Shown here in pieces: positions 1 through 37,300 of a stretch of DNA of 64,000 nt. Both the position numbers and the translations under genes were made by a program. The stretch is from Candidatus Omnitrophota bacterium (lineage in GTDB: Bacteria; Omnitrophota; Gorgyraeia; Zapsychrales; Zapsychraceae). The stretch lies in contig JAJDCA010000015.1 of NCBI GenBank assembly GCA_029261055.1, positions 19,998-83,997 on the forward strand, given 5' to 3'. Numbering within the stretch: the first letter of the stretch is position 1; each line of letters begins with the position of its first letter. Below the pieces are notes generated by a model. It was not told the DNA's origin and searched no databases. It saw only the letters and a program-made list of their open reading frames with translations.

Positions 1-3000
1 CTCTTGAATAGCTTTACTTTGTTTCGTTAATGCAACAATGCGTGATTCCTTATTCTTACCGACAAACTCTACATTCTTTAACTGTTTTTCATATTCTTTA
101 ATTTTCTCTTCTAAAGGCGCTTTCGCTTGAATAATTTGTGACGGAATCGTAGTCTTTACTTCTTTCAACATATTGGCCATATCAGCTAATTTGTTTTTTA
201 ATAAAATACGGTCCTTTTCGCTTTGACTTAATTGTCCTTGAATGGCTTCCCTTTGTTTTGCCAACTCAACAATACGTGATTCTTTCCCCTTAGAGGCAAA
301 CTCTACATTCTTTAATTGTTTTTCATATCCTTTAATTTTCTTTTCTAAAGGCGCTTTCGCTTGGATAATTTGTGACGGCATCGTAGCCTTTACTTCTTTC
401 AATTCATTGGCCGTATCAGCTAACTTGTTTTTTGATAAAATACGATCCTTTTCGCTTTGACTTAATTGTCTTTGAATGGCTTCCCTTTGTTTTGCCAACT
501 CAACAATACGCAGCTCCTTCTTTTGACGAACGGAGGCTTCTTCTCGTAGTTTATTGGAATATTTCCTTATCTTTTCTTCTAAAGGACCTTTAACTGAGGC
601 TAACTGTTGAATTGAAGTTGACTCCGCTTCTTTCAATTTGGCCTCATACATTTTTATCTTCTCTTCCAAAGGCTTCTTACTTTGTATAATTCTTGCTGGA
701 ATGCTCTCTTCCGATTTTTTTAATCTTTTCTTTGTATCCGCAAGCTCCTCCTGCAATAAATTTTTGGCCTTTGTATTTTGTGCAAGCTTTTTACTAATGC
801 CGGAACTTTCTTCTTTTAATCTTTCTAACACTTCTTCTTTGGCATTAATCGAAAGTTTAGATATTTTTAAATCTGTTTCGTATTTTTTAATTTTTTCTTC
901 TAAAGGTTCTTTAGCTTTGGCAATTTGTGATGGAACAGAAGCCATCGTTTTTTTCACTGTATCGGTGGCACTGGCTAACTCTCTTTGTAATGAAGCCCTT
1001 TCTTCTTTTATTTGAGTTAACTGCTTTTGAATAGCTTCACTTTGCTTCCTTAATGCAACAATTCGTGATTCCTTATCCTGACCCACTAACTCCATATTAT
1101 TTACCCGTTTTTCATATCCTTTAATTCTTTCCTCTAAAGGTGATTTAGCTCGAATAATTTGTGATAGAACAGAGGTCTTCAACTCTTTCAAGGTATCGTT
1201 AGTGTCTGCGAGTTTGTTTTCTAAAAAAACACGATCCTTTTTACTTTGATTTAATTGCACTTGAATACTTGAGCTTTGTTCTGCCAATTCAATAATACGC
1301 TGATCTTTCTTTTCACGAACAGATGATTCGTCTTTCAATTTATTGGCATATTCCTTTATCTTTTCTTCTAACGGCATCTTAGCTTCGACCAATTGTTTGG
1401 CTGTAGCGGCCTCCGCCTCTTTTAATTTAGCTTCATAACTTCTTATCTTCTCCTCCAAAGACGCTTTGATTTTCATAATTTTTGTCGGAATACTTGCTTT
1501 TGTTTCTTTCAATGCTTTCTTCGTATCCGACAACTCTTCCTGTAATAAATCCCGTGTCTTTTCATTCTTTGCCATCTGTTTACGAATATCCGAATGCTCG
1601 CCCTTTAACTTTGCCAATTTTTCTTCTTTAGCATTAATTGAAAGCTCAGATATTTTTAAATCTGATTCATATTCTTTAATCTTTTCTTCCAAGGGCTCCT
1701 TGGCTTTGATAATTTGTAACGGAATAGCGGACTTCAGCTCTTTCAAGGTATCGTCAGTGTCTAAGAATTTATTTTCTAAGAAAATACGGTCTTGTTCAAT
1801 TTGTCTTAATTGTTTTTGAATATTTTCATTTTGTTTTGCCAAATCAACAATGCGTCGTTCCTTTTTTTCACGAATGGATGTTTCATCCTTTAATTTATTG
1901 GCATATTCCTTTATCTTTTCTTCTAACGGCATCTTAGCTTCGACTAATTGTTTAACTGTAGCGGCCTCGGCCTCTTTTAATTTAGCTTCATAACTTCTTA
2001 TCTTCTCCTCCAAAGACGCTTTAATTTGCATAATTTTTGTCGGGATACTTGCTTCTGTTTCTTTCAATGCCTTCTTCGTATCCGCCAACTCTTCCTGTAA
2101 TAAATTCCGTGTCTTTTCATTCTTTGCCATCTGTTTACGAATATCCGAATGCTCGCCCTTTAACTTTGCCAGCTTTTCTTCTTTAGCATTAATTGAAAGC
2201 TCAGATATCTTTAAATCTGATTCATATTCTTTAATCTTTTCTTCCAAGGGTTCCTTGGCTTTGGCAATTTGTGACGGAATAGCGGATTTCAGCTCTGTTA
2301 ATACACCGTTTGTATCTACGAATTTGTTTTCTAACAAAATACGGCCTTGTTCAATTTGTCGTAATTGTTTTTGAATATTTTCATTTTGTTTTGCCAAATC
2401 AACAATGCGTCGTTCCTTCCTTTCACGAATGGATGTTTCATCCTTTAATTTATTGGCATATTCTTTTACCTTTGATTCTAAAGACAACTTAACTTCAGCT
2501 AATTGCTTGCGTGCAGATGCTTCCGATTCTTTTAATTTAACCTCGTAAGCGCTTATCTTGCCTTCCAAAGGTTTTTTGTTTTGCATAATCATTGTCGGAA
2601 TACTTTCTTCTGTTTCTTTTAATTTTCTCTTTGTATCCGCCAATTCCTCCTGCAATAATCCCTGTGTCTGTGTATTTTGTGCAAGCTGCTTACGAATACT
2701 TACATTTTCCTCCTTAAACGTTGCCAACCTTTCTTCCTTAACACCACTCGAAAGCTCAGATGCGTTTAAATCTATTTCATATCTTCTAATTTTTTCCTCA
2801 AGAGGTGACTTGGCTTGCGCAATTTGTGATGGAATAGACGTTTTCAATTCTTTCACCATATCATTGGCATCTTCCAATTTATTTTCTAAAAAAATACGGT
2901 CCATTTCACTTTGATTTAGTTTCTTTTCAATGCTCTCGCTTTGTTGCGCCAACTCAACAATACTCTGCTCTTTCTCTTCACGAGAAGACACTTCGGCTTT

Positions 3001-5838: not shown

Positions 5839-6652
5839 AGGACCTTTTCTTTCTTTCTAATAATTCGACTATTTTTTTTAATTTAACTTTTAAATGAACA
5901 ATGGTTTTTTGTAATTTCTTAATTTCAACCTGACTTTTATCTTTTTTCTGAACATCCTGCAATTGTTGATTTTCATGTTTCAATAAAGAATTCTGTAATT
6001 CTAATTTTTTAATTTTTTCTTTGGCTAATTTAAAATCAAGGCTTAATTGTTCATGCTCAGCATCTAAAATCTTTTTTTCATTCAAAAGCTCTGCTAAATT
6101 ATTCGTTAGCGTAAGATAATTGCCCGATAGTTTCTGAAATTGATCAAAAGCCTGCTGCCTATTGGCAGATACCACTCCATCCGGCATAGCAGAACCCTCT
6201 TCGGAAATGCTTACGTCAAGAGTAATCCCGGAGTTTTTTTCCGAAACCTCTTGAACAAGACGACTCTTCTCTGCTTTCCTCTCTTCAGAAACTTTTCTTT
6301 TCTTTTCTTCAACCGTAAATATCTTAACCACCTGACTCCCGACTTGCAGATCCTGAAATTCCATGCGCATGGCAAATTTCCCTTTTCTCCTGGAGGGAAT
6401 CAACTTGGATATGGCACTGGACGTCTCTGCCACCTCTAAATGCGTGATAAAATGCCCCTCCTGATAAATTTCGACGATATCGCCTTTCTTAAGATCCATA
6501 CTGCTAAGATCTGTAAAGGCTATCTTGTATTTTTTGTTAACATTGATAATCTCGCCATAAACTTCTTCCTGGGCAAATACATTCCCGCTAAACCCGACAA
6601 AACAACTAAAAACGAATAGTACGACACTCACATATTTTCTTAAATTTTTCAT
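5828..6652 (-). CDS. Secreted protein with an N-terminal signal peptide, a small beta-rich domain and a C-terminal coiled coil. It sits in an operon immediately upstream of the giant coiled-coil gene.
   Basis: 274-aa ORF. The signal peptide is MKNLRKYVSVVLFVFSCFVGFSGNVFAQ. The C-terminal half is K/E/L/Q-rich heptad-like. Its stop overlaps the giant gene start by about 11 nt. Confidence 0.55.
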   Translation of the reverse strand: MKNLRKYVSVVLFVFSCFVGFSGNVFAQEEVYGEIINVNKKYKIAFTDLSSMDLKKGDIVEIYQEGHFITHLEVAETSSAISKLIPSRRKGKFAMRMEFQDLQVGSQVVKIFTVEEKKRKVSEERKAEKSRLVQEVSEKNSGITLDVSISEEGSAMPDGVVSANRQQAFDQFQKLSGNYLTLTNNLAELLNEKKILDAEHEQLSLDFKLAKEKIKKLELQNSLLKHENQQLQDVQKKDKSQVEIKKLQKTIVHLKVKLKKIVELLERKKRSYEN

Positions 6653-7734
6653 ACCGCAAGATCTCCATTATTCCTTGGATCATGATATTTTTCTTTTAAT
6701 TCTTGAATTTGTGAAGAAATTTCCATAAAGGCCTCTAGCAATTTTGAATCAAAATGCGTTCCGCCACCTTTCTGGATTTCTTCTATGGCTTCCTCACTAG
6801 ACCAGGCTTTCTTATAGGGCCGTGCACTCGTTAAGGCGTCAAAGACATCACATAAACCGCATATGCGTCCTACCAAAGGAATGGCTTCACCTTTAAGCCC
6901 CCCTGGATATCCTGTCCCATCCCATTTTTCATGATGTGTTAAAGCAATTTCTTGGGCGATTTTAAGAAATTCAGAATCACTTCCGTCCAACAATTCAGCT
7001 CCGATGGTTGTATGCGTCTTCATGATCTCCCATTCATTCTCCGTAAGTTTTCCCGGCTTTTGAAGAATACTGTCTGGAATTCCTATTTTACCAATATCAT
7101 GAAGAGGACTGGCTGTTAAAATCATTTCACACTCTTGACCGCTTAAGCCTACTTTTTTCGCAAGACATTCTGAATAATGACTCATCCGAATAATATGCAT
7201 TCCTGTTTCAGAATCACGATATTCTACAGCCCGTGCTAAACGCTGAATAACATCCACTTGTGATTCATAAAGTTTTTGTGTACGATCCTTCACTCTTTGT
7301 TCTAAAACCTTATTTTGATCTTGGATTTCATTATGCAGCATCCGAACCTCAATCATATTCTTAATCCGGATAAGAACTTCTACGCGATCGTAAGGTTTGT
7401 TAAGAAAATCTTTTGCCCCGGACTCAAGCGCACGAAACCGAACTTCCTGATTCTGCTCATCCGATATGACAATAATAGGAAGATACGTATCCCCATCAAT
7501 TTCCTTCAACTGCTCCATAATTTGAAAACCATCCAGATGGGGCATTGTCAAATCTAAAATCAACACTTCTGGTCTAATTTCTTGATAAAGCGCTTTAACC
7601 TGGCGAGGATCCGTTGTTAAGGTAATATTTGTAAAGCCATCTTTTTTTAAAATGGCTTCCAATAGACGAATGCTAATATCTTGATCGTCTACAACAAGTA
7701 TTTTGGCTTGTAAAAGTTTATCCCCATTCATCAC
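6649..7734 (-). CDS. Response regulator: CheY-like receiver plus HD-GYP c-di-GMP phosphodiesterase (RpfG-like).
   Basis: N-terminal receiver (ILVVDDQDISIRLLEAIL...LILDLTMPHLDG). C-terminal HD-GYP motifs (HDIGKIGIPDSIL, HHEKWDGTGYPGGLKGEAIP). Confidence 0.85.
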   Translation of the reverse strand: MMNGDKLLQAKILVVDDQDISIRLLEAILKKDGFTNITLTTDPRQVKALYQEIRPEVLILDLTMPHLDGFQIMEQLKEIDGDTYLPIIVISDEQNQEVRFRALESGAKDFLNKPYDRVEVLIRIKNMIEVRMLHNEIQDQNKVLEQRVKDRTQKLYESQVDVIQRLARAVEYRDSETGMHIIRMSHYSECLAKKVGLSGQECEMILTASPLHDIGKIGIPDSILQKPGKLTENEWEIMKTHTTIGAELLDGSDSEFLKIAQEIALTHHEKWDGTGYPGGLKGEAIPLVGRICGLCDVFDALTSARPYKKAWSSEEAIEEIQKGGGTHFDSKLLEAFMEISSQIQELKEKYHDPRNNGDLAV

Positions 7735-18089: not shown

Positions 18090-20183
18090 TTAACTTCTTC
18101 CTCTAATCCAAACCACAAGTCCACTTAAAGCGATTAGAATAGGCATGATGCAAAGAAGTATAATTACATTACGCTTCTGCAGACTTGTCAAATCAAGAGG
18201 CTGCACTTCCAACTTCTGACGACCCACAAAAATTTTGTAATCCAATTCCGAAACCCAACTGACAACATTCAACGCCATCTGCGCATTACTGTAATGATTG
18301 ATAAAAACATTCGTCATAAAATCGGCATCGGTAAACACAGCCAGACGTGTATCGCTTGTTTTTTTCTCTAATTCACCCCGCGGTTCCCACATTACAAAGG
18401 CAATCGGCACCGGACCAGCTCTATCTACCCCTTCGTCAAATTTTACCTGAAGCGTTCGATTAGTCTCCCCCCAACTCTGCTCTTTCGAAGCTGTCAAAAC
18501 AATTGGGGCCAATTTAATCGTCTTTCGCCTATTGCCGACAATCGAAATCGAACGTGGACGCACATAAAATGTGTAATCCAAATCACGAACAATAGCCTTA
18601 TGGGACAAATAATTTCGCGTTGCCGGACTCCCCACATCATCACCCGCATGACTCACTAAATCGACAACAATATCATTGGCAATACGAATACCCCATGCAT
18701 TAAGAATATTATTCAAAGAAGGATTTTTATTTTTTTCTTCTTCTGTCAAAAGCTTATCCGCGGTGGTCACAAGTGTATGCTCAACAAGAAATACCGCATC
18801 TCCCCCTTGGTTTAAATATTCATTAATTATCTTTTCTTCTTCTAAGGTGAAATGATTCTGCGCACCAGCTACCATCAACACATCACAATCCTCAGGAATC
18901 TTACCTGTAATCCCCAACATGAGCTTATGCGGAGTCATATTATTAGCCAAAAGTAATTCGGCTAATATGGATAAACCTTTTTCTCCTTCATCGGAAAAAT
19001 TAAATTCCCCATGACCCGTCAGGAAATAAATCTGCTGCGCCTTCTGTGTCACTCTTAAAATAGCATTTGTTAATTCTTCTTCTGAAAGCGGATTTTCTGT
19101 AAAATCGACTTCTTTCTGCTTCCCTCCTGATTGAACAAAAACCTTTTTTTCATTACTACTTATGACTTGCCCAAACTGGGATGCATAGCCTAACTGCACA
19201 AGAGGATCAACAATTTCTGTAACAATCCGACCATTCGAAAATCTTTCATAGGCCTTCAATAAATCCTCAATATATTTTGGCGGCAAACCGACATAAAATG
19301 CTGTTAAACGCACATCCTGTTTCAAAGATTGCGTAACGTCCTTTGTATGTGCATCAAGTGTATGCTGTTTTAATAAGGTAAAATCAATTTTCCGATCATG
19401 CTTATGGACAAAATAATTACCTCCTGCCATCAACAGACATAAAAAAATAAAACCAATTCCTTTAACAATATATTTATGCCGAAACCTATTTTCAATACTT
19501 ATGCAGGCTAAAATAATACAAAATAAAATACCACTCAAATAATAGACCACATCAGAGGTCGCAATAAATCCCACAAAAAAACTTTCCGAATGCGGCATAG
19601 TGCTAACTGCACGAATGACATTTTCCGCAAAACCTTCAAAATATTGAATAAAACTCATGGCAAAATACAACATAAATATCACAGCGTACGAGCTAATAGC
19701 GGCCACAATTTGACTACACGTACACGACGAAATCAAAATACCGATAGCTAAAAACAAACTCCCTTCAAGCCAAATACCTAAATATCCGAAAAATATCGTA
19801 AGCCTATCAGGAGCACCAAAATATTCCACAATGCCATAATAAGGAAAGGTTAAAATAATGATCAGCGTAAAGAAGGCCAAACTTCCTAAATATTTACCCA
19901 TCACAATGGCTGTATTAGACGTAGGACTGGTCATAAGAAACTCAATAGTTCCCGTAGCCCGTTCTTCAGCCAGCACCTTCATCGTCAACAACGGCACCAA
20001 AAAGACAAACATAAATTCCATGACCAAAAAGACATCCCGCAAATTAGCCTCTTGATTTTGATCAATGATCATAAAAAAGAAAATATTGAAAACGGAAGCT
20101 GTGATGATCAGAACAAGGTACGCCATCGGAGATTTGAAATACCCGGCAAGTTCTTTTTTAGCAATGGCAATAATTTTATTCAT
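18090..20183 (-). CDS. ABC-2 type permease fused to a GldG-like periplasmic auxiliary domain.
   Basis: An N-terminal 6-TM ABC-2 permease, a large extracytoplasmic GldG-like region, and a C-terminal TM anchor. Overlaps the upstream ABC ATPase gene by 8 nt. Confidence 0.6.
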   Translation of the reverse strand: MNKIIAIAKKELAGYFKSPMAYLVLIITASVFNIFFFMIIDQNQEANLRDVFLVMEFMFVFLVPLLTMKVLAEERATGTIEFLMTSPTSNTAIVMGKYLGSLAFFTLIIILTFPYYGIVEYFGAPDRLTIFFGYLGIWLEGSLFLAIGILISSCTCSQIVAAISSYAVIFMLYFAMSFIQYFEGFAENVIRAVSTMPHSESFFVGFIATSDVVYYLSGILFCIILACISIENRFRHKYIVKGIGFIFLCLLMAGGNYFVHKHDRKIDFTLLKQHTLDAHTKDVTQSLKQDVRLTAFYVGLPPKYIEDLLKAYERFSNGRIVTEIVDPLVQLGYASQFGQVISSNEKKVFVQSGGKQKEVDFTENPLSEEELTNAILRVTQKAQQIYFLTGHGEFNFSDEGEKGLSILAELLLANNMTPHKLMLGITGKIPEDCDVLMVAGAQNHFTLEEEKIINEYLNQGGDAVFLVEHTLVTTADKLLTEEEKNKNPSLNNILNAWGIRIANDIVVDLVSHAGDDVGSPATRNYLSHKAIVRDLDYTFYVRPRSISIVGNRRKTIKLAPIVLTASKEQSWGETNRTLQVKFDEGVDRAGPVPIAFVMWEPRGELEKKTSDTRLAVFTDADFMTNVFINHYSNAQMALNVVSWVSELDYKIFVGRQKLEVQPLDLTSLQKRNVIILLCIMPILIALSGLVVWIRGRS

Positions 20184-20967
20184 AATTCTCTACCCCATGC
20201 TGCTTCAGAAAAAATTGCTCCAAACTTCCTTCTTCTAAAATATGTGCAAGCGAATCATCAACAATAATTTCGCCGGCTTTAATAATCAAAACCCGGTGCG
20301 CGACCTGTTCAATTTCTGAAAGAATATGGGTACTTAAGATGACGGTTCTTTGGTTTTCAAAATTTTTAATAAGCTTGCGAACTTGAAGCACTTGGATAGG
20401 ATCCAAACCATTGGTGGGTTCATCTAAAATCAATATTTCCGGATCATGTATAATCGCCTGAGCTATTCCAACCCTTTGTTGATACCCTTTTGAAAGCTGC
20501 GCAATGGGTCTCTTTTGCACAGAAAAAAGATCACATTCTTCCAAAACTCTATCGATCTGAACAGTGTGCTGTTTGCGTGGCACATCTTTTAATTCGGCGG
20601 AAAATTTTAAATACTCTTTAACACTTATATTAGAATAGAGCGGTGGTGTTTCTGGCAAATAGCCTATTTTCTTACGTACCAATAAAGAATTATTGGCCAC
20701 ATTTGCCCCCCCAATATGAACCTCCCCGGATGTAGCTAAAAAATACGTGGTTAAAATACGCATCAAGGTTGTTTTACCGGCCCCATTCTGCCCTAAAAAG
20801 CCAACAATCTCCCCTTTTTTAATTTCAAATGAGACGTCATTGAGGGCTTGATATTTCCCAAAATATTTTGATATATTACATGCTTGAATCATGACGACAA
20901 TGATAACGCTTTCTCGAAAATGAGGCAACAGAAAAGATTTTAAGAAAATCTTTTCAAAAATTGGCAA
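20176..20967 (-). CDS. ABC transporter ATP-binding protein (GldA-like). The start is probably at MIQACNISKY near 20892.
   Basis: Walker A (GQNGAGKTT), ABC signature (LSKGYQQRV) and Walker B (ILILDEPTNGLD). Confidence 0.85.
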   Translation of the reverse strand: MPIFEKIFLKSFLLPHFRESVIIVVMIQACNISKYFGKYQALNDVSFEIKKGEIVGFLGQNGAGKTTLMRILTTYFLATSGEVHIGGANVANNSLLVRKKIGYLPETPPLYSNISVKEYLKFSAELKDVPRKQHTVQIDRVLEECDLFSVQKRPIAQLSKGYQQRVGIAQAIIHDPEILILDEPTNGLDPIQVLQVRKLIKNFENQRTVILSTHILSEIEQVAHRVLIIKAGEIIVDDSLAHILEEGSLEQFFLKQHGVENYE

Positions 20968-21145
20968 TTAGACCAAAAATATTTTATACTTGAAATGTAG
21001 AGTTACGCTATATTGAATCTCTACGGAATTTGACAATTTGAGAAAAAGGTAAACTGCTCGTAAGAGTAGGACACAAAACTAGAGGGTCCCAATTGAATCA
21101 ATGGGATAGCCAGTTGCCGCATTAATCGCGTAAAAACTTTGTGAA

Positions 21146-21177
21146 CCTATTCTACGACAGTGGAATAGGTTTTTTTA
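21146..21177 (+). terminator. Intrinsic-terminator-like hairpin with a T-run (cctattc-N10-gaatagg-TTTTTTT) inside the 326-bp leader upstream of the first fibre-like gene.
   Basis: A 7-bp GC-containing stem is followed by 7 T on the plus strand. No plus-strand CDS lies upstream, so this suggests an sRNA or an attenuator. Confidence 0.45.
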
Positions 21178-21293
21178 ATGAGCGCATAAGTTATGGAACA
21201 TGTTTGGTGACATAACTTATTTGCGCGAATTAACCCTGCGAAGCTCAACGCGAAAGCAATTGAGCGAAGCAGGGTAAATACTAGGAGACCAAA

Positions 21294-22859
21294 ATGAAAA
21301 AAATATTTTATTCACTCACATTTATATTAACGCTGTCATTTGCTATAACAGCACAAGCTGAACAGCTTCAGCTTACAACCTACTATCCTGCTCCTTATGG
21401 AGCATACGACAAGCTACTTCTGGTTCCACGCACCCCTTTGAGCGGTAGCTGCCAGACAGGTACGCTTTATATGGAAGACATAGGTAATGGCGATGGAGAA
21501 ATAAGACTTTGTGATAAAGGAATCTGGGCTCCTATTTCAGGCCATTGGAAGCAAGAAAACGATGATATCTTTTTAGTCGATACAGCAACAAACCCTGATT
21601 TATTTGTAGGTATTGGAACCACTAATCCAGGTGCTCGCCTTTCGGTACAAGGCTACGGGAACAGCGCAACAACAGCCAGTCTCAATATGACAAACAGTGA
21701 TGGAAACAGCATACTGTATGCCAGAGATGACAGAAATGTCGGCATTGGAACAACCAACCCTTCAGCGAATTTAGATATTAATAACAATGGCGACCTTACA
21801 GGGGATCCTCTTGGCAGTAATTTATGGTTTCGCCTTTCCGGTGGATCCACCATTGATCACGGACGTATTTGGGCTCAATATTCCAACACTCAAGCTCCTA
21901 TTCTCGTTATGGAAGATGATGACGACCCTTCACGCATTCAATTTCAACAGGTAGGTACAGGCACAGAGTCAACGCCAGAGTTTGTCAGCTGGGTCGGTAT
22001 GGGGAAAAAGAATTCCAGTGACATTGCCCTTATGGGAGGAAAAGTCGGTATCGGTACCACTGACCCTTTAAGTAATCTGCACATCAAAGCGCCTTCGCCA
22101 TCTATAATTTTAGAAAGAGAAGATAATGCCCAAGCAGCTGCTCTAGCATTTTTTCCTAATGGGGCTATTTCCCCTACAAACATGTATTGGGCCATGGGGC
22201 TCAATCTAAATAGTAACCATTTTGTTATCGCTAATGATAGCAACACATCCTTTCCTAACAACATAAGATTTACCATTAAAGATGACGGTAAAGTCGCTAT
22301 GGGAGGAAATCATATTCCCCAAACTGATCTGCATATAAAGGGAAATGGTGTGCTTAGATTAGAAGATACTAGCGTAGCAATAGACTTCATAAATGAGAAT
22401 TCTGGTGACGATAATTTTAGTATTGCTTCTTGGGGCGGAAGTAAAGATATGCTCAGATTTCGATCTAACAAAGATGGAACTTGGGACGATATTGTCCAGT
22501 TTGAAAGTGATGGCGATGTATGGGTCGAAGATGATGTAACGGCCGATGAATACAAAACACATTCTGACGTTCGCCTTAAAAAAAATATCCTACCACTGAC
22601 AGACGCGCTCTCACGTGTGACACAGCTCCGTGGTGTTAACTACCAATGGAGAGATACCGATAAAGATCAAGGAAAAATTCAAATGGGTCTCATCGCTCAG
22701 GAAGTAGAAGAAGTATTTCCTGAAGTCGTTTCAACTGACGAAGACGGATTCAAATCTGTAGCCTATAGTAAACTTGTTGCTGCTTTGATCGAAGCTGTTA
22801 AAGAATTAAAAGCAGAAAATGATGATCTTAAATTGAGGATTGAGAAAATAGAAAAATAA
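21294..22859 (+). CDS. Secreted fibre/adhesin-like protein with IGTTxP-type repeats and a C-terminal S74 intramolecular-chaperone auto-processing domain (phage tail-spike type).
   Basis: Signal peptide MKKIFYSLTFILTLSFAITAQA. Repeated (V/I)GIGTT(N/D)P motifs. The C-terminal ~125 aa (HSDVRLKKNILPL...GLIAQEVEEVFPEVV...LIEAVKELKAENDDLKL) match the conserved core of the peptidase S74 chaperone domain, spanning roughly 22485..22856. Confidence 0.65.
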   Translation: MKKIFYSLTFILTLSFAITAQAEQLQLTTYYPAPYGAYDKLLLVPRTPLSGSCQTGTLYMEDIGNGDGEIRLCDKGIWAPISGHWKQENDDIFLVDTATNPDLFVGIGTTNPGARLSVQGYGNSATTASLNMTNSDGNSILYARDDRNVGIGTTNPSANLDINNNGDLTGDPLGSNLWFRLSGGSTIDHGRIWAQYSNTQAPILVMEDDDDPSRIQFQQVGTGTESTPEFVSWVGMGKKNSSDIALMGGKVGIGTTDPLSNLHIKAPSPSIILEREDNAQAAALAFFPNGAISPTNMYWAMGLNLNSNHFVIANDSNTSFPNNIRFTIKDDGKVAMGGNHIPQTDLHIKGNGVLRLEDTSVAIDFINENSGDDNFSIASWGGSKDMLRFRSNKDGTWDDIVQFESDGDVWVEDDVTADEYKTHSDVRLKKNILPLTDALSRVTQLRGVNYQWRDTDKDQGKIQMGLIAQEVEEVFPEVVSTDEDGFKSVAYSKLVAALIEAVKELKAENDDLKLRIEKIEK

Positions 22860-22886
22860 TAAATACTTTATAATAAAGGATATCTC

Positions 22887-24023
22887 ATGAAAAAAATATG
22901 TTATGTATTTATACTTACCCTGCTAACAGGATTCTCTCAAGCAGCCGTTGCTGAACAGCTTCAACTCACAACGTATTACCCTGCCCCTTATGGAGCCTAC
23001 GACAAACTCATTCTGGTTCCACGTACCCCTTTGAGCGGTAGCTGCCAAACAGGGACACTTTACATGGAAGATGTTGGGAATGGCGATGGGGAAATGCGAC
23101 TCTGTGATAAAGGAATTTGGGCTCCTATGACAGGACAATGGATTCAAAAAAAGGATGATGTCTTTTTAATTGATACCGAAACAAACCCTGATTTATTTGT
23201 AGGTATCGGAACAACTGACCCAAGTGCCCGCCTTTCGGTAGAAGGTTACGGAAATAATGCGACAACAACTAGCCTTAATGTAACAAATGGTGATGGATCA
23301 AGCATACTTTATGCCAGAGATGATGGCAATATTGGTATCGGAACAACATCCCCCGAATCAGCATTACACGTAAAAGGTGGTGGCGATATATACACAGAAG
23401 GATGGAGTTCTGGAATAAATTTCATCAGTAGTCAACCAGCTACTGTCTCTACCTTTGCCATCAAAACTCACGTACCGGATGGAGACCAACTGCGCATCCG
23501 AAGCAATCCAAATAGATTGAACGGGGCATCCTGGCGTGACCTTGTTAGCATTACAGGCAGCGGCAATGTCGGTATCGGAACAACAAACCCTCAGTCATCA
23601 TTACAAATAGGCGGTGGTATCCAGTTTAATGCTAATGCGGATTGGCGGAATGTAGAACCTGATGTCCATTTCGACTCTAGCGCTTCTATTGCTGCCGGTT
23701 ATAGTTTGTATAACATTATCAATGGAAATAACACTGCCCCAAATTCCGTATTTATCATTGGAACAAACAGCCTAACCACGGGCGGGGCTAATTATAGAGA
23801 ACTCATGCGTGTTAAAACAAACGGTAATGTCGGTATCGGAACAAAATATCCGACACAAAAACTACACATCAACAGCGTCATGCGGTTGGAGCCTAGAAAT
23901 AACAAACCTTTTAATTGTAATAAAAATGAAATAGGTTCTATTTACTACAAAAAGAATAAAGAATTGCGTTTATGTACTAGAGACGGTAGCGACTATAAAT
24001 GGAGAAAACTTAAACTTGATTAA
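22887..24023 (+). CDS. Paralogous secreted fibre-like protein. It has the same N-terminal ~150 aa but lacks the S74 domain and has a Cys-motif C-terminal tip.
   Basis: Its N-terminus is about 80% identical to that of the previous gene (AEQLQLTTYYPAPYGAYDKL(L/I)LVPRTPLSGSCQTGTLYMED). The C-terminus, ...NCNKNEIGSIYYKKNKELRLCTRDGSDYKW, repeats the N-terminal C-x-LY-x-RLC-x-G-x-W motif. Confidence 0.55.
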   Translation: MKKICYVFILTLLTGFSQAAVAEQLQLTTYYPAPYGAYDKLILVPRTPLSGSCQTGTLYMEDVGNGDGEMRLCDKGIWAPMTGQWIQKKDDVFLIDTETNPDLFVGIGTTDPSARLSVEGYGNNATTTSLNVTNGDGSSILYARDDGNIGIGTTSPESALHVKGGGDIYTEGWSSGINFISSQPATVSTFAIKTHVPDGDQLRIRSNPNRLNGASWRDLVSITGSGNVGIGTTNPQSSLQIGGGIQFNANADWRNVEPDVHFDSSASIAAGYSLYNIINGNNTAPNSVFIIGTNSLTTGGANYRELMRVKTNGNVGIGTKYPTQKLHINSVMRLEPRNNKPFNCNKNEIGSIYYKKNKELRLCTRDGSDYKWRKLKLD

Positions 24024-24053
24024 GAGTTGTCCAAGTTATTTTTGGACAATCTC

Positions 24054-24470
24054 TTAAATTAACCCGGGGATAAGCCCCTTAATAGCCTTTTTGAGATAAT
24101 CTCTTTCATAAACATCCTGATCAATTACTTTATCATTCCACACCACAATATCTAAATCCATCGTCCGTGGACCATATTTTTTTTCTCCATGCTTTCGCCC
24201 TAATTGTGATTCAATTATTTTGAGGGCGTCATTTAAAGCATCCAATTCAAATTCGGTTTCTAATAAAACAGCACCGTTGAGAAAATCTGGTTGATCTTGA
24301 AAAGGACCTACGGGGTGGGTTTTTATAAAACGGGATTCGGCGAGGACATGAAACTCTTTAGAAAGAATTTCTCTGGCTCTGGGGATATTGCACTCCGGTT
24401 CAATGTTCGAACCAAGGCCAACCACAACTCTATTCACCGCTACTGACCTCCACCGAAACAGAATCAGCAA
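24054..24470 (-). CDS. folK: 2-amino-4-hydroxy-6-hydroxymethyldihydropteridine pyrophosphokinase (HPPK).
   Basis: VVGLGSNIEP and KYGPRTMDLDIVVWND motifs. Confidence 0.8.
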   Translation of the reverse strand: MLILFRWRSVAVNRVVVGLGSNIEPECNIPRAREILSKEFHVLAESRFIKTHPVGPFQDQPDFLNGAVLLETEFELDALNDALKIIESQLGRKHGEKKYGPRTMDLDIVVWNDKVIDQDVYERDYLKKAIKGLIPGLI

Positions 24471-26087: not shown

Positions 26088-27266
26088 TTAGATTGTACCT
26101 TTCTCAAATATTTCTTTCATAGCCTGAGCAACAATAGGATTAAATTGTGTTCCGGATTTATTTTCAATTTCTTCCATAGCAATTTCTTTTTTTAAACCCT
26201 TACGATACGGCCTGTCAGATGTCATGGCATCAAACGTATCCGCCACAGAAATAATCGCGGCTGATATGGGAATACCTGCGCCTTGTAGTGCTTCAGGGTA
26301 ACCGGCTCCATCAAAACTTTCGTGATGATACTTAATACCATCCAAACATTCTTTAGGCAATGAAAGAGGTTTAACAATTTCTACCCCTTTGATCGTGTGT
26401 TGCTTCATAATAATATACTCATCATTGGTGAGTTTACCACGTTTATTTAATATCACCTCGGGAACGCCTATTTTTCCAATATCATGTAAAAGGCCGGCAA
26501 TATATAAATTTTCAAAAAATCCTTTCTCAAACTCAGCAGAACCATTGACGACCATTTGATGCGCAATGTCCACGGCATATTTTGTTACACGCGCGGTATG
26601 CCCATGCGTGTAGGCATCCTTTGCCTCAATGGTTGAACCTAAAACAACAATGGTTTGAATAAAAAGTTCATGATTACGATCCGCCTCTTTTTTTAAACTA
26701 TCAAAAAGCTGGGCATTACGAATGGCCATAGCAGCATCTGACGCCAAAGCACTAAAAAAATCTAATTCATCTTGTTCAAAACTTGTCTCATCAAATTTCT
26801 CGCCTAATAAAAGAACCACCAAAAGATCGCCATGATAATACGCAGGAACACAGGCAACCGAATTAAGCGTTTGCATTTGTTTCTCGACCTTATGCAAAAG
26901 ATCTTTTGTTCCGTTACCATTCTCGATCACACTTTCTTTCCAAATCAAGCGATGGATATCTTGTGAGACAAGGGCACTGCGGTCGAGCGTAAGACATTTA
27001 AATTCTTTTTCTCTGAAAACTTTTATTATGGGACTTTTTTTATCAAAGCGGGTAAAACCAGATGGGATTTTGTGACCTGTTTCTCCTCGAGAAATATCTA
27101 AAAAGTAGGCGTCTTCATTGGGATCAAAAAGAATCATCGCCGCATGCCGAAGCCCCAGCTTACGTACGATCATACGAACAATAAGCTTAATAAGCAGCTT
27201 CGGGTCATGAATCATAATCATGCCTTTGCTGGCAGTCTCAAGCTCTTTCTTATAATCAATCTTCAT
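26088..27266 (-). CDS. GAF-domain sensor fused to an HD-GYP c-di-GMP phosphodiesterase.
   Basis: The N-terminal ~200 aa are GAF-like. The C-terminus carries HDIGKIGVPEVIL and HHESFDGAGYPEAL motifs. The stop abuts the folE start. Confidence 0.8.
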   Translation of the reverse strand: MKIDYKKELETASKGMIMIHDPKLLIKLIVRMIVRKLGLRHAAMILFDPNEDAYFLDISRGETGHKIPSGFTRFDKKSPIIKVFREKEFKCLTLDRSALVSQDIHRLIWKESVIENGNGTKDLLHKVEKQMQTLNSVACVPAYYHGDLLVVLLLGEKFDETSFEQDELDFFSALASDAAMAIRNAQLFDSLKKEADRNHELFIQTIVVLGSTIEAKDAYTHGHTARVTKYAVDIAHQMVVNGSAEFEKGFFENLYIAGLLHDIGKIGVPEVILNKRGKLTNDEYIIMKQHTIKGVEIVKPLSLPKECLDGIKYHHESFDGAGYPEALQGAGIPISAAIISVADTFDAMTSDRPYRKGLKKEIAMEEIENKSGTQFNPIVAQAMKEIFEKGTI

Positions 27267-30835: not shown

Positions 30836-31336
30836 CTACACACCTTTAATTTGGCTTCCATTACGATCAGAATTAAACGCGTAACATTTAGCAAAAGAAC
30901 GTGTAATTAAAAATAACGAAAAACCAAATATCAGCACTTCAAAATAAGGTATATACTGCATTGATGAAGTATCAATAATATGAACGTTGCTTTCCCTTAG
31001 ATTTGCAGGAATTTCAGGGAGAAGGAAATAATTAATCCAAAAGATAACGACACTCCAAATTGAAAAAATTAACTTCAAAATTAAGGCCCATTTTAGTACA
31101 AGTGAACTCCAGGTTCGGCTAAAGAGCAAACCCATTCCACCAAGAATAAAGAGCATTGGAATTATCGCGGAATAAATAATACTCGCCATTTGAAAATTCC
31201 ATCCATGCAAATTAATAAGACTTTTTAAATTTGAAAAAATAAAAATTAAAGAATGATAATTTTCTTTGAATTGGACAACGCCATAGAGTAACGCTAACAT
31301 GGAAAAAATTTTTATTAATTTTATTTTTTTAACCAT
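30836..31336 (-). CDS. Small multi-TM membrane protein. Candidate immunity protein for the main Rhs C-terminal toxin.
   Basis: 166 aa with 4 TM segments. Its start is 10 bp downstream of the Rhs stop. AT-rich. Confidence 0.45.
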   Translation of the reverse strand: MVKKIKLIKIFSMLALLYGVVQFKENYHSLIFIFSNLKSLINLHGWNFQMASIIYSAIIPMLFILGGMGLLFSRTWSSLVLKWALILKLIFSIWSVVIFWINYFLLPEIPANLRESNVHIIDTSSMQYIPYFEVLIFGFSLFLITRSFAKCYAFNSDRNGSQIKGV

Positions 31337-31345
31337 AAAGACTCC

Positions 31346-34300
31346 TTATCTCTGCAACACACGCCCTCCTAGAAGACGCCCTTCAGTTATCGGAGATGTT
31401 CGCTGTGAAATATTTCCATTTCTAAAATTTGTTTGCTGAATCCATGCTGATCCTACATCTAATTCATTCCATGTCCTAGTAAAACTTTTTGTATTACCAA
31501 AATATGTTTTAAAATGGCCATTTTGTCTATATGTAGTTTCTCTGTGGTATTCTGCACGATATATTCCAGCGCTCAATGATGTTAATCCGGGGGCTTGAAT
31601 TGTCCCAACATTTTTCCAATTTCCGACTTTAACTGTTTGAATGTGAGAATCTCCAACCCAACTGCCGATGACATTATAAAATTTATGTACAATCAATTCA
31701 TATTTTTTATTCAAATACCCTCCAGGATGAAATGAATCATTTGCAACAAATCCTATGGCGGCTGATACACCACCTAATTTTGCTCCGTCTCCAAAATTAC
31801 CTCCGGTTACTGAGGAAAGGCTTCCACCGATAACGGCCCCTACAATCGAACGACGAGCAAAATTTCCTGAAAATTGAGAAAAAGTATCATTAGTCGTTGT
31901 TTGTAGAAATGGTATCCTTTGCCCGGCTAATTGCGCAACCCCTGCACTCACTCCGCCTATTAAGGCGCTTATTCCTGGGTCGCCACCTAAAATTGTTGTA
32001 TTAATCCCTCCTGATATTGCGCCGCCTATCGTATGCGCAGAAATCTGGGCTGAGCCACTTAATCCTAAATCACCTATGCCTCCAAATATCAACCCACTTA
32101 TAGCTCCCGTTAGAAATCCATCTCCTATATCCCCACCTGTTGCCGCAGCTGTGGCGCCTCCAATGAGAGATCCAAAGAATGCACTTTTAAATAAACCCGC
32201 AAAAAAACTAAAGAGTGCAAAGTTTCCACTGGGATCAACCAAATTAATCGGATTATTATGGACGTAAGTATACCTATTAAATGTTTGTGGATTTTCAGGA
32301 TACGGCACAATTGTATCTGACGTTATAAATCTTCCAATAGATGGATCGTAATAGCGGGCTCCGTAGTAATATAACCCTGCTTCATCGTCGAAGGGTTTCC
32401 CGGTAAAATAGTACAACGCTGTTTCCTGATCATTACCATATTTTTCATGTGTGGCAAAACCACCGTATGGTAGGTACTCGATGAGTTCCTTCTTAGTTCC
32501 TGTATCATCTGTGAGAATATTGGTGCCGCCTAAATGGTCGGAGTGGTAGTATAAAACTTTGTTCCAGGAAACAGAGGCAATTCTTGTATCACCAAGAAAG
32601 ATGTATTGGATTGGACGATTATTGGTTTCCTCGTACATCGTTCCGATATAGATGGTTTCGGTCGTTGTGCTTGTGTCATTTGAAGTCATGTTAAAGAATG
32701 ACATTTTGTTGTGGACAAGATACCCACCGGCAAAGTAGTTGTGATGCTGGTCGACTTCGATGTTATATACCCTTACCGCGGATTGTGTGGTAATTTTTTC
32801 GATTTTTTCAATACTCGCATCCGTTAGATCTAGGCTCAGAAGTTTATCTTCAACAGATAGCTTGCCAATTTCACGCCATTCTCCTTGTGAATAGAATTGG
32901 TGATTGTCCGTCACACGTAAAGTATCATTAATGATTAAATATTCATCAGCAAATTCTCCATTAAAGAAATTCGTCACTGTTGATATAACCTTCTCTCCTG
33001 TACGCTCATTAAAACTCATAACAGCATCACCGATTTGTATCTCTTCAATCGATTTTGTACGCCCATCCGCCATCAAAACAGGTGTTCCTGCTAGAAAACA
33101 CGTGTTATTTCCTGATGGTGTTCCATGCCCGACACCATTTTCAAATGTTACTTTCTTCGTACGTCCTCCATCACCATCATATTTATATTGGGCAATAAGC
33201 ACCCCTGCCTTTTTTACTTCTGTCAGAAGGTTTCCAATATCATAGGTATAATTGATACTGACACCATTTTTAATCTTTGCTGTCATATTACCGTTGGCAT
33301 CATAGGTATAGATCTCGGTGGTGGCACCATCCGTCCGCGATGTCACTGCATGCGGGCCAGCACTGTTTTGACCGTAGGTATATGTAAACCCATCTTTCTG
33401 AATAATATTCCCGATGGTATCATAGGAATACGTCTTGGTGCCGTACGCTTCCCCTACGGCTTGCGTCAAACGACTTAAGGCGTCGTATTGGAAATTTTGT
33501 GTGGCCGTATGGATATTATCAACAATAGACCCCACATTACCCACTGCATCATAAGTATATGAAAAATCTTGTAAAACGCTATTATCTGTACTACTTGTTT
33601 TTACTTGTAGTAACCGTAAATTTAATGGATCGTAGGTATTGCTGGTTATGACACCATTGCCATATTCAATTTGTGTGATCTGCCCATTAACATTATATTT
33701 TATATTTCTTACAAATGAAGTTGATGCAATAGTTCCTGCCACTACATCAATATTTACTACAGCCACATTACTATCTAATTTTCCATCGTTTACCTTAAAA
33801 ATAAAATTATCTTTACCAAGATAATCTACATTTGGTGTATACATTAATTCGGGCGCTGTTCCTGATATTTTGCCATTCGTTGGGAATGTTACAATACTAT
33901 ATGTTAATACATCGTTATCTGCATCATTGCCAGTTAATGTAATAGGTAAAGTACCATTCATATTAATGGTTAAACTGCTTTGATCATTAGCGACTGGAGG
34001 CTCATTGGTTTGAGGTGGACTTACTAATTGAATTATGTCAGAAATTTCACTGGAGCTTAGAGCATCATTGTATACACGCACATCGTCAATACTGCCTTTA
34101 AAATAAATTCCATTACGTCTACCATTAAAAATATCTGCTTCTGAACCATCGCCAATATAGCCATACCGAGTTACGCCGTTCCCAAGTTTCACATTAGTGC
34201 TATAAGCATCACTTTGACTGTCTAGTACACCATCAACATAAATCTTTTTATCATTAACTTGACTAGCATCAAACACCCCGCACACATGATGCCATTGGCC

Positions 34301-37300
34301 GTCATCGACTCGGACGGAACTCGCCATATCATGAATCGCACTTCCCTCACCTCGTGTATCCCAAGAGATTTTACCGATATCTTCTGGTGCATTATGAAAG
34401 TTAATCCCCAATGACCAATACTCACTTCGATCATAATCTACTATTGTTTGTCGTGAAGAAGAACTTGTATTGATCCACGCACAGGTTGTTATTTTATTAA
34501 TTTCCCCAGCAACATTGTAACTTAGATTATTTATCGCTACATAATCGTTCGTGCCATCAAAATCTAATCCATTATTAATTTTTCCAGAAACCCAAGCAGC
34601 ATTCGTCATATTAAACAACGTGCCATTATTTCCATTTCCTGTTGCATCATTAGCATTATTCCCACTTGTTTCATCAAAATTCCAATGACCTATGAATGTA
34701 TTAATTGATGTAGTTGTTAATACATCTAATCTGATTTTTACTACATTACTATCTGCCGTGCCATCATTCACCTTAAATGTAAAACTGTCTGCTCCTACAT
34801 AATTCAAATTTGAACTATATATTAAATTTGGAGCTACTCCTGATAAACTTCCATTCGTTGGTTGAGTTATTACAACATACGTTAATGTATCTCCATCTGC
34901 ATCACCACCTGTTAGTGTTATAGCTAAATCTGTGCCTTGATTGGTTGTCAATCCATTCTGACTATTTGCCGTTGGCGCTGTATTATCTGGTGACACTATT
35001 TTAAAGCTCACCGCTGTTTCTGATTTAAAAGAATCGTTAAAAAGTATTCTCACTTCGTAATCCCCGGGAGGTAATCCAGAGTCAAATGCAATTCTCCCAT
35101 TGATAATTCCTGTGGTGCCGGTTTTTGTTCCATCTGTATAATACCATCCCAAGTTACTAGTATTCGCTGATCCAGCAGAAAACAACCCTATCCAGTCACT
35201 TGAATTCGCTAAAGCATTAAAAAAAGTCACTGTGATGGCCTCATTAGGGGCATATGTAGTTTTATTGATAAAAAGTAATGGCGGGTTTGCTCCAACGATA
35301 AAAGATTCTTTTGATTCTACTTCAAAAGAATTATTAGAAAACATTCTTGTCTCATATACACCATCAACGTTTAATCCATTATTAATTTTCGTAGAAACCT
35401 GATCAGTATTCGTCATATTAAACAACGTACCATTATTCCCATTTCCTGTCGTATCGGCAGCATTGTTCCCACTTGTTTCATCGATTTGTCTCTGAGCAAT
35501 GTAATCCTCTATGCTAGAAGGTGGTATGATATTATCACTAGGCCCAAAAGATGGAATATATCCAGGTGCAGCATTGAAAATATTACGATTTACAATGCGA
35601 AGATTATCCATACTCCCATTTAAATTTTCATAACTACCTCCATGAGGCCCTTCCCCAATGTAAAGCCCTCCCATATAATTAAACGTATTTTCAGTCTGCC
35701 GATACCCCGTCTGTTTACCATCTAAATAAAGTCCATATTTATCCCCCACTTTAACTAAAGCTACATGATGCCATTCATTATCAGTAATTTTGCCACCTTG
35801 TACGGAAATAATACGGTTAAAATTTATTTCTGCAGAAAATTCTAATTTATCGCGGTGCCCCAATTGCCATTCATTTGAACTATTAGATTTATGAACCACA
35901 TAATAATTTGGACTTACAAGGTCTCTATGCTTAACCCAGAGGTCAATGGTCCAGTCTTGAATGGGTGATGCAACAATATCCCAGTCAGGACTATCATCAA
36001 TGTGTAGAAAAGTTTTACTATTAAATGAAAGGCTAGTGCCTGAGAATTTTCCATCTGTAAAATCTAATTCTGGATTCTTATGCGGTATTATTGTGTGCCT
36101 CTTAGATGTATCCGTAAGCGCTGCGTCTATATTTTGCCCATCAAAAAGTAAAAGCAATTTTGTTTCTGGAAACAAAGGAACGGGTGGAGGTTGCGGGGTA
36201 GCATTTCTTTGATTCGAAGTTGGACCATCCACTTGCCCATTATATGCGGAAACCACAAAATAATACGTTGTCCCATTATTTACTTCAGCAACAACAAAAT
36301 TCGTTGTATTCCCAACATCGATTATATTTATCTTATTATTCTCAGAAGTTCCGTATTTAATTTTATAGCCTTCTGCATTATTGACACTGGTCCAACCCAA
36401 GCTTATATTTTTATCCCTACCAACAGAAACATTCAATGTTGGTGCATCTAAAACTATTGTGTTTACTTCATTTGAATTTTGACTTTCTGTTTGAATATCA
36501 TACGCTATAACTACAAAATAGTACGTAAGTCCGCCACTTAACCCAGTAACATTAAAGCTATGGACATTACCTACATCAATTATTTTTATATAACTTCCTT
36601 TGGAGGTTCCGTATTTAATTTTATAGCCTTCTGCATTATCGACACTGGTCCAATCTAAGCTAACGCCCTGATTTTCTACAACTACGGTATTCAAAACTGG
36701 AGGATCTATTATAGGTGGTGCTGGTATGATTTGTTGATTAGAAATTTCTACTACCTGTCCCGCAGCATTATATCCATAATACATATTTTTTGTATTTGGA
36801 TACTGTATTTTTACAATCGAATTTAGTGCATCATAATCTCGTTGGACATTATAAGCCTGATTATTAATTTTTTTTATTGATTGAATTTCTCTCCCCAAAG
36901 GATCATATATAAACTGAACATCACCTTTAGTATAATCGGCTTGTGTTAACTTTCCTTTTGAATGAGACACAGATGCATCATCATAGGTATAATTAACATC
37001 CAGATCTCCTCCATCCGTCTTATTTACAAGGCGATTTAAAGCATCGTAGGTAAATGTAATCTTTTGTCCTTTGGCGTCCATTTGTTCAATAAGGTTGCCG
37101 TTAAGATCATACTCGTACGTCCAAATCCCCATGTCTGGATCATCCATTTTTATTTTACGCCCAAGTTTGTCATATGTAATGTTGGTCGTATTACCCTGTT
37201 GATCTTGTGTTTGGATTAAATTACCAGAGATATCATAGGTATACTGTGTGGTCGCATAGAGAGTAAAAGGTTCCATGGGATAAAAATTTGAATCACGCCC

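Follow-up and report, generated by a model that had tools for sequence, protein, structure and literature searches.

What kind of structure do two adjacent fibre genes encode in a genome of the Omnitrophota, and which signal governs their expression? The question is raised by two tandem open reading frames (ORFs), A and B, in a stretch of 64,000 nucleotides (nt) of contig JAJDCA010000015.1 (Candidatus Omnitrophota bacterium, assembly GCA_029261055.1), which we refer to as the window. Our analysis points, with a probability of roughly 0.7, to a two-gene operon for cell-surface fibres that stands under the control of a riboswitch of the cyclic di-GMP (c-di-GMP)-I class in a probable member of the Omnitrophota. 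The riboswitch, which is absent from the initial annotation of this DNA, is the most informative feature of the locus. With a c-di-GMP-sensing switch in front of the fibre genes, fibre production is probably tied to a lifestyle signal of the cell. The fibres themselves appear to belong to the mosaic adhesive trimer (MAT) family, which is known from Bdellovibrio.

Two paralogous fibre genes, one with and one without an S74 domain

The two genes and the elements of their products are the following.

21294..22859, + strand: ORF A, 521 aa, S74-type MAT-like fibre protein (ORF list, Pfam, BLASTP)
22887..24023, + strand: ORF B, 378 aa, non-S74 MAT-like fibre paralogue (ORF list, BLASTP)
21360..21593, + strand: N-terminal module of A (aa 23-100), consisting of a TTYYPAPYGAY peptide and a two-cysteine beta module (C53, C73, W78, W85)
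21366-21407 and 22959-23000, + strand: conserved peptide behind the signal-peptide cleavage site, aa 25-38 of A and B (family alignment)
22563..22856, + strand: Peptidase_S74 intramolecular chaperone/autoprotease domain with C-terminal coiled-coil (Pfam PF13884)
23874..24008, + strand: second Cys module of B, aa ~330-374, MRLEPRNNKPFNCNKNEIGSIYYKKNKELRLCTRDGSDYKW (hhalign against the N-module profile)
24017..24060, no strand assigned: inverted repeat, likely operon terminator, overlapping the B stop codon between the convergent genes B and folK

A and B align over 372 aa with 47% identity (BLASTP, E 2e-94), and according to tblastn they are the sole copies within the window. Identity amounts to 78% across the mature residues 23-165 and to 41% in the signal peptide, and it declines distally. 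The initial annotation had described tandem paralogous secreted fibre-like proteins with a highly conserved N-terminal region of ~150 aa, a description that agrees with the two ORFs, with their identity in residues 23-165 and with the Sec-type signal peptide recognised by inspection in each protein (MKK, ~15 hydrophobic residues and an AQA/E or AVA/E cleavage site). Residues 2-18 are helical in the AlphaFold2 (AF2) model of B. The genes are separated by a 27-nt gap that carries an AAGGA ribosome-binding site (RBS), and the hairpin at the B stop codon has arms of 19 bp, seen both in a chance mir-219 alignment and in the sequence. Given this gap with its RBS and the inverted repeat at the B stop codon, A and B look like one operon and are probably co-transcribed.

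Protein A consists of the signal peptide (aa 1-22), the N-terminal module (N-module, aa 23-~100), a shaft with three repeats and an S74 domain that extends to the C-terminus; in B, the signal peptide is followed by an N-module and proximal shaft as in A, a shaft with four repeats and a C-terminal Cys module. The (V/I)GIGTTxP repeats that had been noticed in both proteins were counted as V/IGIGTTxPxxxL units, starting at aa 105, 149 and 251 of A and at aa 105, 149, 228 and 315 of B. A profile search with PF13884 matched aa 424-479 of A with E 5.1e-19 and 68.8 bits (cutoff 22), covering profile positions 1-57 of 58, and no Pfam domain matched B at E<=1, in line with the earlier assignment of an S74 auto-chaperone to A and not to B, which is hence termed the non-S74 paralogue. 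The Ser-Lys dyad motif SDxxxK, as defined for this domain (PMC10769870), is present in A as SDVRLK (aa 424-429, S424/K429), and self-cleavage of A is predicted directly before S424. Relatives of the S74 end of A in the PDB are 6F45, 8JOV and MyRF (7DC3), and 46 PHROG tail-fibre families match the C-terminal end of A.

The N-module starts with the consensus peptide (I/L)T(I/L)TTYYP(A/S)P(Y/F)GxY, to which one subclass adds the two-cysteine module RLxP...C..G..YY......C...W. This peptide lies directly behind the signal-peptide cleavage site and, being retained in over 90% of 129 family members, surpasses every other part of the proteins in conservation; it is unstructured in the AF2 models and is a candidate docking or sorting peptide. 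For the N-module we modelled the fragment of B, standing in for A (78% identical over aa 23-165), and obtained five beta-strands with a predicted local distance difference test (pLDDT) score of 81; in the model of full-length B the same region reaches a pLDDT of 92-95. The full-length monomer model has a mean pLDDT of 59.8 with a low-confidence shaft (37-66), and it was not used for the fold search, being uninformative for the shaft. No fold matching the N-module was found in the PDB.

That B ends with a second copy of the N-terminal Cys motif, another proposal of the initial annotation, was borne out by profile-profile comparison: residues ~330-374 of B, including the preceding RLxPR element, align to a 33-sequence N-module profile with a probability of 96.9% and E 1.7e-10. 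The accompanying suggestion of a lectin-like tip found no support, since the N-module matches no fold in the PDB. Second copies of the Cys module also occur in other family members (e.g. P0127, P0137 and P0176), and the reuse of the N-module as the tip of B is a distinctive point of this protein.

The shaft provides the link to characterised fibres. In phmmer searches the shaft of B matched the solved Bdellovibrio MAT fibres 8OND/Bd2133 (E 6e-7) and 8OJN (E 5e-3), with the matches falling on the common repeat G-N-V-G-I-G-T-T-x-P-x-x-x-L-H-V. The MAT family (Caulton et al. 2024) comprises 13 S74 and 8 non-S74 fibres in Bdellovibrio, all of which have a ~130-aa beta-rich domain after the signal peptide; these fibres are trimeric and surface-located, carry swappable tips and have a role in prey handling (PMC10769870). 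Their shaft is marked by the capping-loop repeat V-G-x-x-x-x-P-x-x-x-L, to which the repeats of A and B conform, and an Omnitrophica S74-like member is already listed in Supplementary Table S3 of that study (PMC10769870). Based on the shaft matches and on this listed member, A and B appear to be new, unusually short members of a known family, forming an S74/non-S74 pair.

A shaft unit of ~55 aa (W..G.W.....IY....T..NVGIGTTxP) was also observed in 20-55 copies in metagenomic giant proteins of 1,400-7,700 aa (P0241-P0380). The short fibres A and B thus share their building block with some of the longest bacterial proteins predicted.

A c-di-GMP-I riboswitch in the leader of the fibre genes

Upstream of A the following elements were located.

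21038..21122, + strand: c-di-GMP-I (GEMM-I) aptamer (Rfam RF01051)
21143..21176, + strand: intrinsic terminator of the expression platform, a 13-bp hairpin (21143-21172) followed by T7 (terminator scan)
20961..20990, + strand: sigma-70-like promoter candidate, TTGGCA-18 nt-TATACT (consensus scan, 10/12), ~48 nt upstream of the aptamer
21177..21275, + strand: two very stable hairpins between terminator and RBS (-45 kcal/mol, z -7.85)
21283..21287, + strand: RBS of A, AGGAG, 6 nt before the ATG (read from the sequence)

The aptamer scores 66.5 bits against RF01051 (gathering cutoff 35) and covers the model in full length (positions 1-87), with E-values of 8e-11 on the whole window and 4.4e-13 locally. 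Its alignment runs from AAAGGUAAAC through a GUAA tetraloop on helix P1b and GGACACAAAAC to GAUAGCC-AGUUGCCG. A distance of 172 nt separates the end of the aptamer from the ATG of A on the same strand, and the terminator that follows the aptamer folds with -17.5 kcal/mol (z -6.3).

The promoter candidate at 20961-20990 is a pattern match only, and the number of promoter-like sites in the region is not above shuffle expectation. The AGGAG of A is unpaired in the predicted fold. The hairpins at 21177-21275 might stabilise the transcript, provide a processing site or form a second control element; by inspection, no counterpart was seen in the short leaders of two related loci, L009 and L033. A link to merRNA, the c-di-GMP riboswitch RNA of Bdellovibrio, was considered and rejected because merRNA is not followed by an ORF (PMC3627812).

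The window also codes for two candidate c-di-GMP phosphodiesterases, both of them HD-GYP proteins, at 26088-27266 (- strand) and 6649-7734 (- strand). One is of the GAF-HD-GYP type (motif HHESFDGAGYP) and one of the REC-HD-GYP type, and the gene at 26088-27266 lies 2 kb from the riboswitch-controlled operon.

The riboswitch recurs in front of related fibre genes

We searched 78 loci from GTDB reference genomes that encode relatives of the N-module, designated by L numbers. Among the first 12 loci scanned with Rfam a second above-threshold aptamer was detected in L009 (5776-5906, 46.3 bits), where the order is aptamer, terminator and then an S74 fibre gene with the same N-module. With a covariance model of our own, built from four aptamers, we then searched the 79 sources including the window (866 kb, both strands) and obtained seven credible matches, in the window, L009, L022, L033, L002, L034 and L039. 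All seven lie directly 5' of an N-module fibre gene and on its strand; the aptamer of L022 is located between the non-S74 and the S74 fibre genes of a tandem array. A rough estimate of our own, in which each riboswitch would precede a random gene among ~10 per locus, puts the chance of this adjacency near 1e-7; the leaders are not independent. The Rfam E-values of the further aptamers are 1e-6 (L033), 3e-5 (L039), 0.01 (L022) and 0.07 (L002), and the aptamer of L034 was recognised by our covariance model alone.

In the alignment of the seven leaders 98.5% of the helix cells are paired, compared with 24-55% in slid controls. Compensatory changes are found in 6 of 12 pairs and none of 500 shuffles reaches the observed score, values that are to be read with the caveat that the alignment was fitted to the model. 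The link between riboswitch and fibre gene is recurrent in the family, yet optional. In the literature searched we found no report of c-di-GMP riboswitches linked to S74 or tail-fibre genes or to Omnitrophota, and neither term occurs in two Omnitrophota genomics papers.

Three of the aptamers are divergent and score below the Rfam threshold (L034 5766-5908, L002 2298-2438 and L022 8530-8702). In L002 and L034 the stretch from P1b to the ACAAAG junction is extended by two hairpins, and P2 of L022 contains an insertion of ~90 nt.

A model for the operon

From these elements the following course of events can be proposed. Transcription would start upstream of 21038, possibly at 20961-20990, the aptamer would be made first and the strong terminator thereafter, and the c-di-GMP level would set the share of transcripts that read through into A and B. 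Both proteins would be exported through Sec, and the N-module with the proximal shaft, common to both, would presumably dock the trimer on the surface of the producer, leaving A and B to differ at the distal, target-facing end. A would fold with the help of its C-terminal S74 chaperone, which would cut itself off before S424 and expose a beta-helical tip; B would need no chaperone of the S74 type and would end in its second small two-cysteine beta module. By architecture and shaft sequence the two proteins group with the MAT fibres, which Bdellovibrio uses for prey recognition.

Several observations weigh against this picture. The P1 stem of the window aptamer is weak, with about 3 of 4 pairs formed. 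A riboswitch is present in just 6 of the 78 related loci (7 of the 79 sources with the window), making it an optional and not a defining feature of the family, and two of the seven aptamers (L002, L034) are weak and have unusual insertions. The likeness to MAT fibres is one of shaft sequence and architecture. Homology between the N-module and the Bdellovibrio N-domain is no more than possible; neither of these two domains has a homologue in the PDB, which is only weakly consistent with it. Finally, each functional step, i.e. trimerisation, surface display, a role as adhesin or in target recognition, and self-cleavage, is deduced from homology.

If the model holds, it would matter beyond this locus. 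For the Omnitrophota, which are abundant, tiny and uncultured, the predatory or parasitic lifestyle that has been proposed is derived from gene inventories alone. A riboswitch before recognition-fibre genes yields a concrete prediction, namely that the c-di-GMP level sets fibre expression, and would link this second messenger to host attachment.

Direction of the switch

All seven leaders have the same order of elements, with the aptamer being followed by a linker of 20-40 nt, a terminator hairpin and a T-run. The terminator arms CCTATTC...GAATAGG are kept in all of them, the encoded proteins being merely 30-49% identical. When the 3' arm of the terminator was withheld from folding, the 5' arm paired with the 3' strand of the aptamer helix P1b. 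This strand is the best aptamer partner of the 5' arm in six of the seven leaders (8-9 bp, -7.4 to -10.7 kcal/mol), its place being taken by a strand of P2 in the remaining one. Since the terminator 5' arm has a single conserved alternative partner, which belongs to an aptamer helix, we lean towards an OFF switch: in the ligand-free state the already transcribed aptamer strand would capture the 5' arm and allow read-through, and binding of c-di-GMP would lock the aptamer so that the terminator forms and fibres are made at low c-di-GMP only. Fibre production at low c-di-GMP could match a free, searching state and would be shut off once the c-di-GMP level rises.

This assignment has its own difficulties. 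The minimum-free-energy folds contain both the aptamer and the terminator, and the alternative pairing is less stable by 5-12 kcal/mol. The individual duplexes are only marginally better than those of shuffled sequences (fractions 0.03-0.47). With duplexes this weak and the alternative fold less favourable, an OFF switch requires kinetic competition and presupposes that the conserved arms are not explained by shared ancestry. Thermodynamic folding by itself does not decide between ON and OFF.

The same parts could also make up an ON switch, in which high c-di-GMP allows read-through and the fibres are induced as part of a sessile or attached programme, by analogy with adhesins and pili under other c-di-GMP riboswitches. 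We regard this as possible, with clearly less weight than the OFF switch. It has general experience on its side, as adhesins are usually induced by c-di-GMP and both polarities occur among class I riboswitches, and the terminator that forms by default in the minimum-free-energy folds corresponds to what an ON switch should show at rest. However, in all seven leaders the terminator begins 20-40 nt past the aptamer and the two have no nucleotides in common, leaving the bound aptamer without an evident way to block the terminator, and the one competing pairing that recurs would break up the aptamer, which is the logic of an OFF switch. An ON switch would place the fibres in the attached programme.

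Distribution of the family and role of the fibres

Full-length searches returned about 2,400 S74-containing proteins, many of them named 'tail fiber domain-containing protein' and originating from metagenome-assembled genomes (MAGs) of Omnitrophota, Desulfobacterales and Elusimicrobia; the N-terminus is common to ~18 among the best 120 full-length matches. Searching a word index with the N-module profile gave 748 proteins, every named one from Candidatus Omnitrophota; a short length is frequent among these proteins, and an H-type lectin tip is present in some. In the GTDB reference genomes 226 relatives of the N-module were found, mostly in Omnitrophota, the best match being 49% identical. The 78 loci fetched from this set are mostly labelled Omnitrophota or 'uncultured Planctomycetales/Planctomycetia' (third-party annotation (TPA) assemblies); the remaining labels are a few Elusimicrobia/Elusimicrobiota, one Lysobacterales, one Deltaproteobacteria and three that read 'bacterium' only. 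An exhaustive profile search gave a count of 24,321, which giant proteins drive up through their many shaft repeats and which is not a family size; ~60 of its top 150 clusters match the entire profile at their own N-terminus.

Searches of viral sequences gave a different result. No relative of the N-module was found in 2.9 million viral contigs (IMG/VR), and it had no match among viral structure models. When B was compared with 50,697 phage genomes by tblastn, the shaft alone was matched (aa ~105-335, 26-31% identity). Taken together, the N-module appears almost confined to Omnitrophota. Two other proteins of the window also have relatives in the loci analysed, the SurE protein being 58% identical to one of an Omnitrophota MAG (L011) and the folE protein 48% identical to one in L079. 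Like the distribution of the family, these similarities point to the Omnitrophota, though they are no proof of such an origin.

The 78 loci contain 100 ORFs with an N-module, and their tips vary. Tandem arrays of 2-4 genes on the same strand occur in 16 of these loci (17 of 79 sources with the window). Such tip swapping and tandem arrangement are expected of diversifying recognition, and together with the closest characterised relatives, which are prey-binding fibres, they speak for adhesins directed at prey or hosts. Omnitrophota are, moreover, predicted to be largely predatory or parasitic (PMC10066038).

The fibres might instead serve as matrix or biofilm fibrils, mediate cohesion between cells or act as glycan depolymerases similar to tailspikes. 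Several points are compatible with such roles: enzymatic spikes, endosialidase among them, are likewise matured by S74 domains, the presence of one module at either end of B would suit the bridging of like surfaces, and control by c-di-GMP is typical of biofilm functions. We nevertheless consider these roles unlikely, as no catalytic domain match was obtained for A or B and as the characterised relatives, the variable tips and the predicted lifestyle named above all point to recognition of other cells.

Going further, one may speculate that c-di-GMP directly gates, through a riboswitch, some of the fibres by which Omnitrophota recognise hosts or prey, that the N-module is a new surface-docking device and that B is a double-ended fibre; we offer this combination as a tentative extension whose odds are low. 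Were it true, it would provide the first cis-regulatory handle on attachment in Omnitrophota, and B could recognise on other cells the very surface element to which it is attached on the producer. Apart from this speculation, A and B extend the MAT fibre concept to short, tandemly diversified fibres in another phylum, and the compact N-module could serve to find, and perhaps to re-target, such fibres.

The ligand of the aptamer

Alignment to the consensus identifies the discriminating nucleotides of the window aptamer as the G before GUAAAC, the A in CAC-A-AAAC and the C in UAGCC. We take these to be G20, A47 and C92 in Vc2 numbering, a pattern of the c-di-GMP type and not of the A20 type, which is associated with cyclic GMP-AMP (cGAMP), or of the GGC variant. 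From these canonical contact nucleotides we infer that c-di-GMP is the ligand.

An aptamer for 3'3'-cGAMP or another dinucleotide, or a decaying relic without regulatory function, appears improbable. Such readings could draw on the local scans, in which the best-listed model of the clan is the c-di-GMP-I-GGC variant with 58 bits (cutoff 59), on the weak P1 in the window and on L034, which apparently lacks one G at the ligand-discriminating position. They are countered by the higher score of the canonical RF01051 model (66.5 bits), by the G/A/C pattern, presumably that of a c-di-GMP aptamer by our reading of the Vc2 numbering, and by the compensatory changes in 6 of 12 pairs among the seven leaders, which argue for selection on the fold. 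As an observation on its own, L034 reads AAAAAGUAAAC, with one G fewer than the window, and may have an A at the position of the ligand-discriminating G20.

Genomic surroundings

Pfam scans of 40 ORFs revealed no phage structural genes in the 64 kb, and specifically no genes for capsid, portal, terminase, tail tube, sheath, baseplate, lysis or integrase; a tRNA scan of the window detected no tRNA genes. A prophage context was rejected on the basis of these Pfam and tRNA scans together with Rfam scans, which showed housekeeping genes, an RHS toxin and one transposase only. The initial annotation had stated that no phage structural genes flank the fibre genes and had likened these to chromosomal adhesin-type fibres of predatory bacteria as opposed to prophage fibres. 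Both statements are supported, the first across the entire window and the second in light of the MAT match, the lack of phage genes in the 64 kb and the absence of the N-module from viral contigs. It is very improbable that A and B belong to a prophage, a tailocin or an extracellular contractile injection system, or to a remnant of one, as the similarity of the S74 end and shaft to phage fibres (the 46 PHROGs for A, and cyanophage and pelagiphage fibres at 26-31% identity) and the insertion sequence (IS)-type transposase 16 kb away are outweighed by the lack of virion, lysis, integrase and tRNA genes in the 64 kb, by the cleavable Sec signal peptides, given that phage and tailocin fibres assemble in the cytoplasm, by the absence of the N-module from viral contigs and viral structure models, and by flanking genes of the housekeeping type.

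The ABC exporter and folate genes that had been pointed out as neighbours are indeed present in the window. As partners of the fibres they were rejected, because tblastn of 22 window proteins against the 78 related loci showed no conserved synteny; not being conserved next to homologues, these genes say nothing on the function of A and B. The divergent ABC system at 18090-20967 (- strand) consists of a permease fused to a GldG-like ABC_transp_aux domain and DUF7088 and resembles the gliding-associated GldA/F/G system. Iron genes of the window encode an FTR1 iron permease, a TonB receptor, TonB/ExbBD and Fur, and, apart from the GldF/G-like ABC transporter, further genes are ilvBN, folK, folB, an SDR gene and folE.

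The sole mobile-element gene seen in the window is the IS-type transposase at 40337-41617 (- strand), with an rve_3 integrase core and a helix-turn-helix. The region 31346-40057 (- strand) encodes an RHS/YD-repeat polymorphic toxin of 2,903 aa with FG-GAP, TcdB_toxin_midN, RHS repeats, Laminin_G_3 and Big_9, in which a PT-HINT pretoxin domain (aa 2328-2446) precedes an unannotated C-terminal tip of ~450 aa. The 166-aa ORF directly downstream (30836-31336, - strand) has no Pfam match and is a candidate immunity gene. Two long ORFs run off the window. The one at 1-5856 (- strand, at least 1,952 aa) has a signal-peptide-like start and K/E/L-rich coiled-coil repeats, which explain an AT skew of -0.3 over the initial 6 kb. 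The second ORF, at 58.9-64 kb (+ strand), encodes at least 1,645 aa. Proteins of such length have been reported as a trait of Omnitrophota.

Comparison with known systems

Each component by itself, be it the S74 domain, the MAT-type shaft or the c-di-GMP-I riboswitch, is well known, and the advance lies in their combination and in the regulatory link, not in a new principle. A and B resemble the Bdellovibrio MAT fibres (8OND, 8OJN, 8OML, 8ON4) in having a signal peptide, an N-terminal module common to paralogues and a GNVGIGTTxPxxxL shaft, in the interchangeable S74 or non-S74 tips, in their chromosomal location and in the occurrence of several paralogues per genome. Unlike these fibres, which comprise ~1,000 aa, A and B are much shorter (378-521 aa), the tip of B repeats its own N-terminal module, and the operon is under a riboswitch; 'riboswitch' and 'c-di-GMP' are both absent from the paper on the MAT family (PMC10769870).

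With the S74 fibres and tailspikes of phages, such as the K1F endosialidase, the L-shaped fibre of T5 and the long tail fibre of S16 (6F45), A shares the C-terminal S74 domain, the SDxxxK motif, the coiled-coil and a repeat shaft. In contrast to these, A and B have a Sec signal peptide, lack a domain for attachment to a virion or baseplate and have no phage genes nearby. The ICA domain of MyRF (PDB 7DC3) is a homologous self-cleaving trimerisation domain of the S74 type; MyRF is a eukaryotic membrane-bound transcription factor and has nothing beyond this domain in common with A.

Riboswitches of the c-di-GMP-I class with terminator platforms control genes of adhesion or motility elsewhere, for example in Vibrio cholerae (Vc1/gbpA), Clostridioides difficile (Cd1/flagella) and Bacillus thuringiensis (Bc2/cap). 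As in the known systems of this class, the fibre-associated riboswitch has a canonical core with an intrinsic terminator behind it and occupies the 5' leader of genes for surface structures. It differs from them in its targets, which are fibres of the S74/MAT type, and in the phylum, neither of which turned up in the literature searched, and in the large insertions that several family members carry in P2 or between P1b and the junction. What sets the arrangement apart is the recurrent riboswitch control of such fibres in Omnitrophota, along with a compact, phylum-restricted N-module that has no known fold relative.

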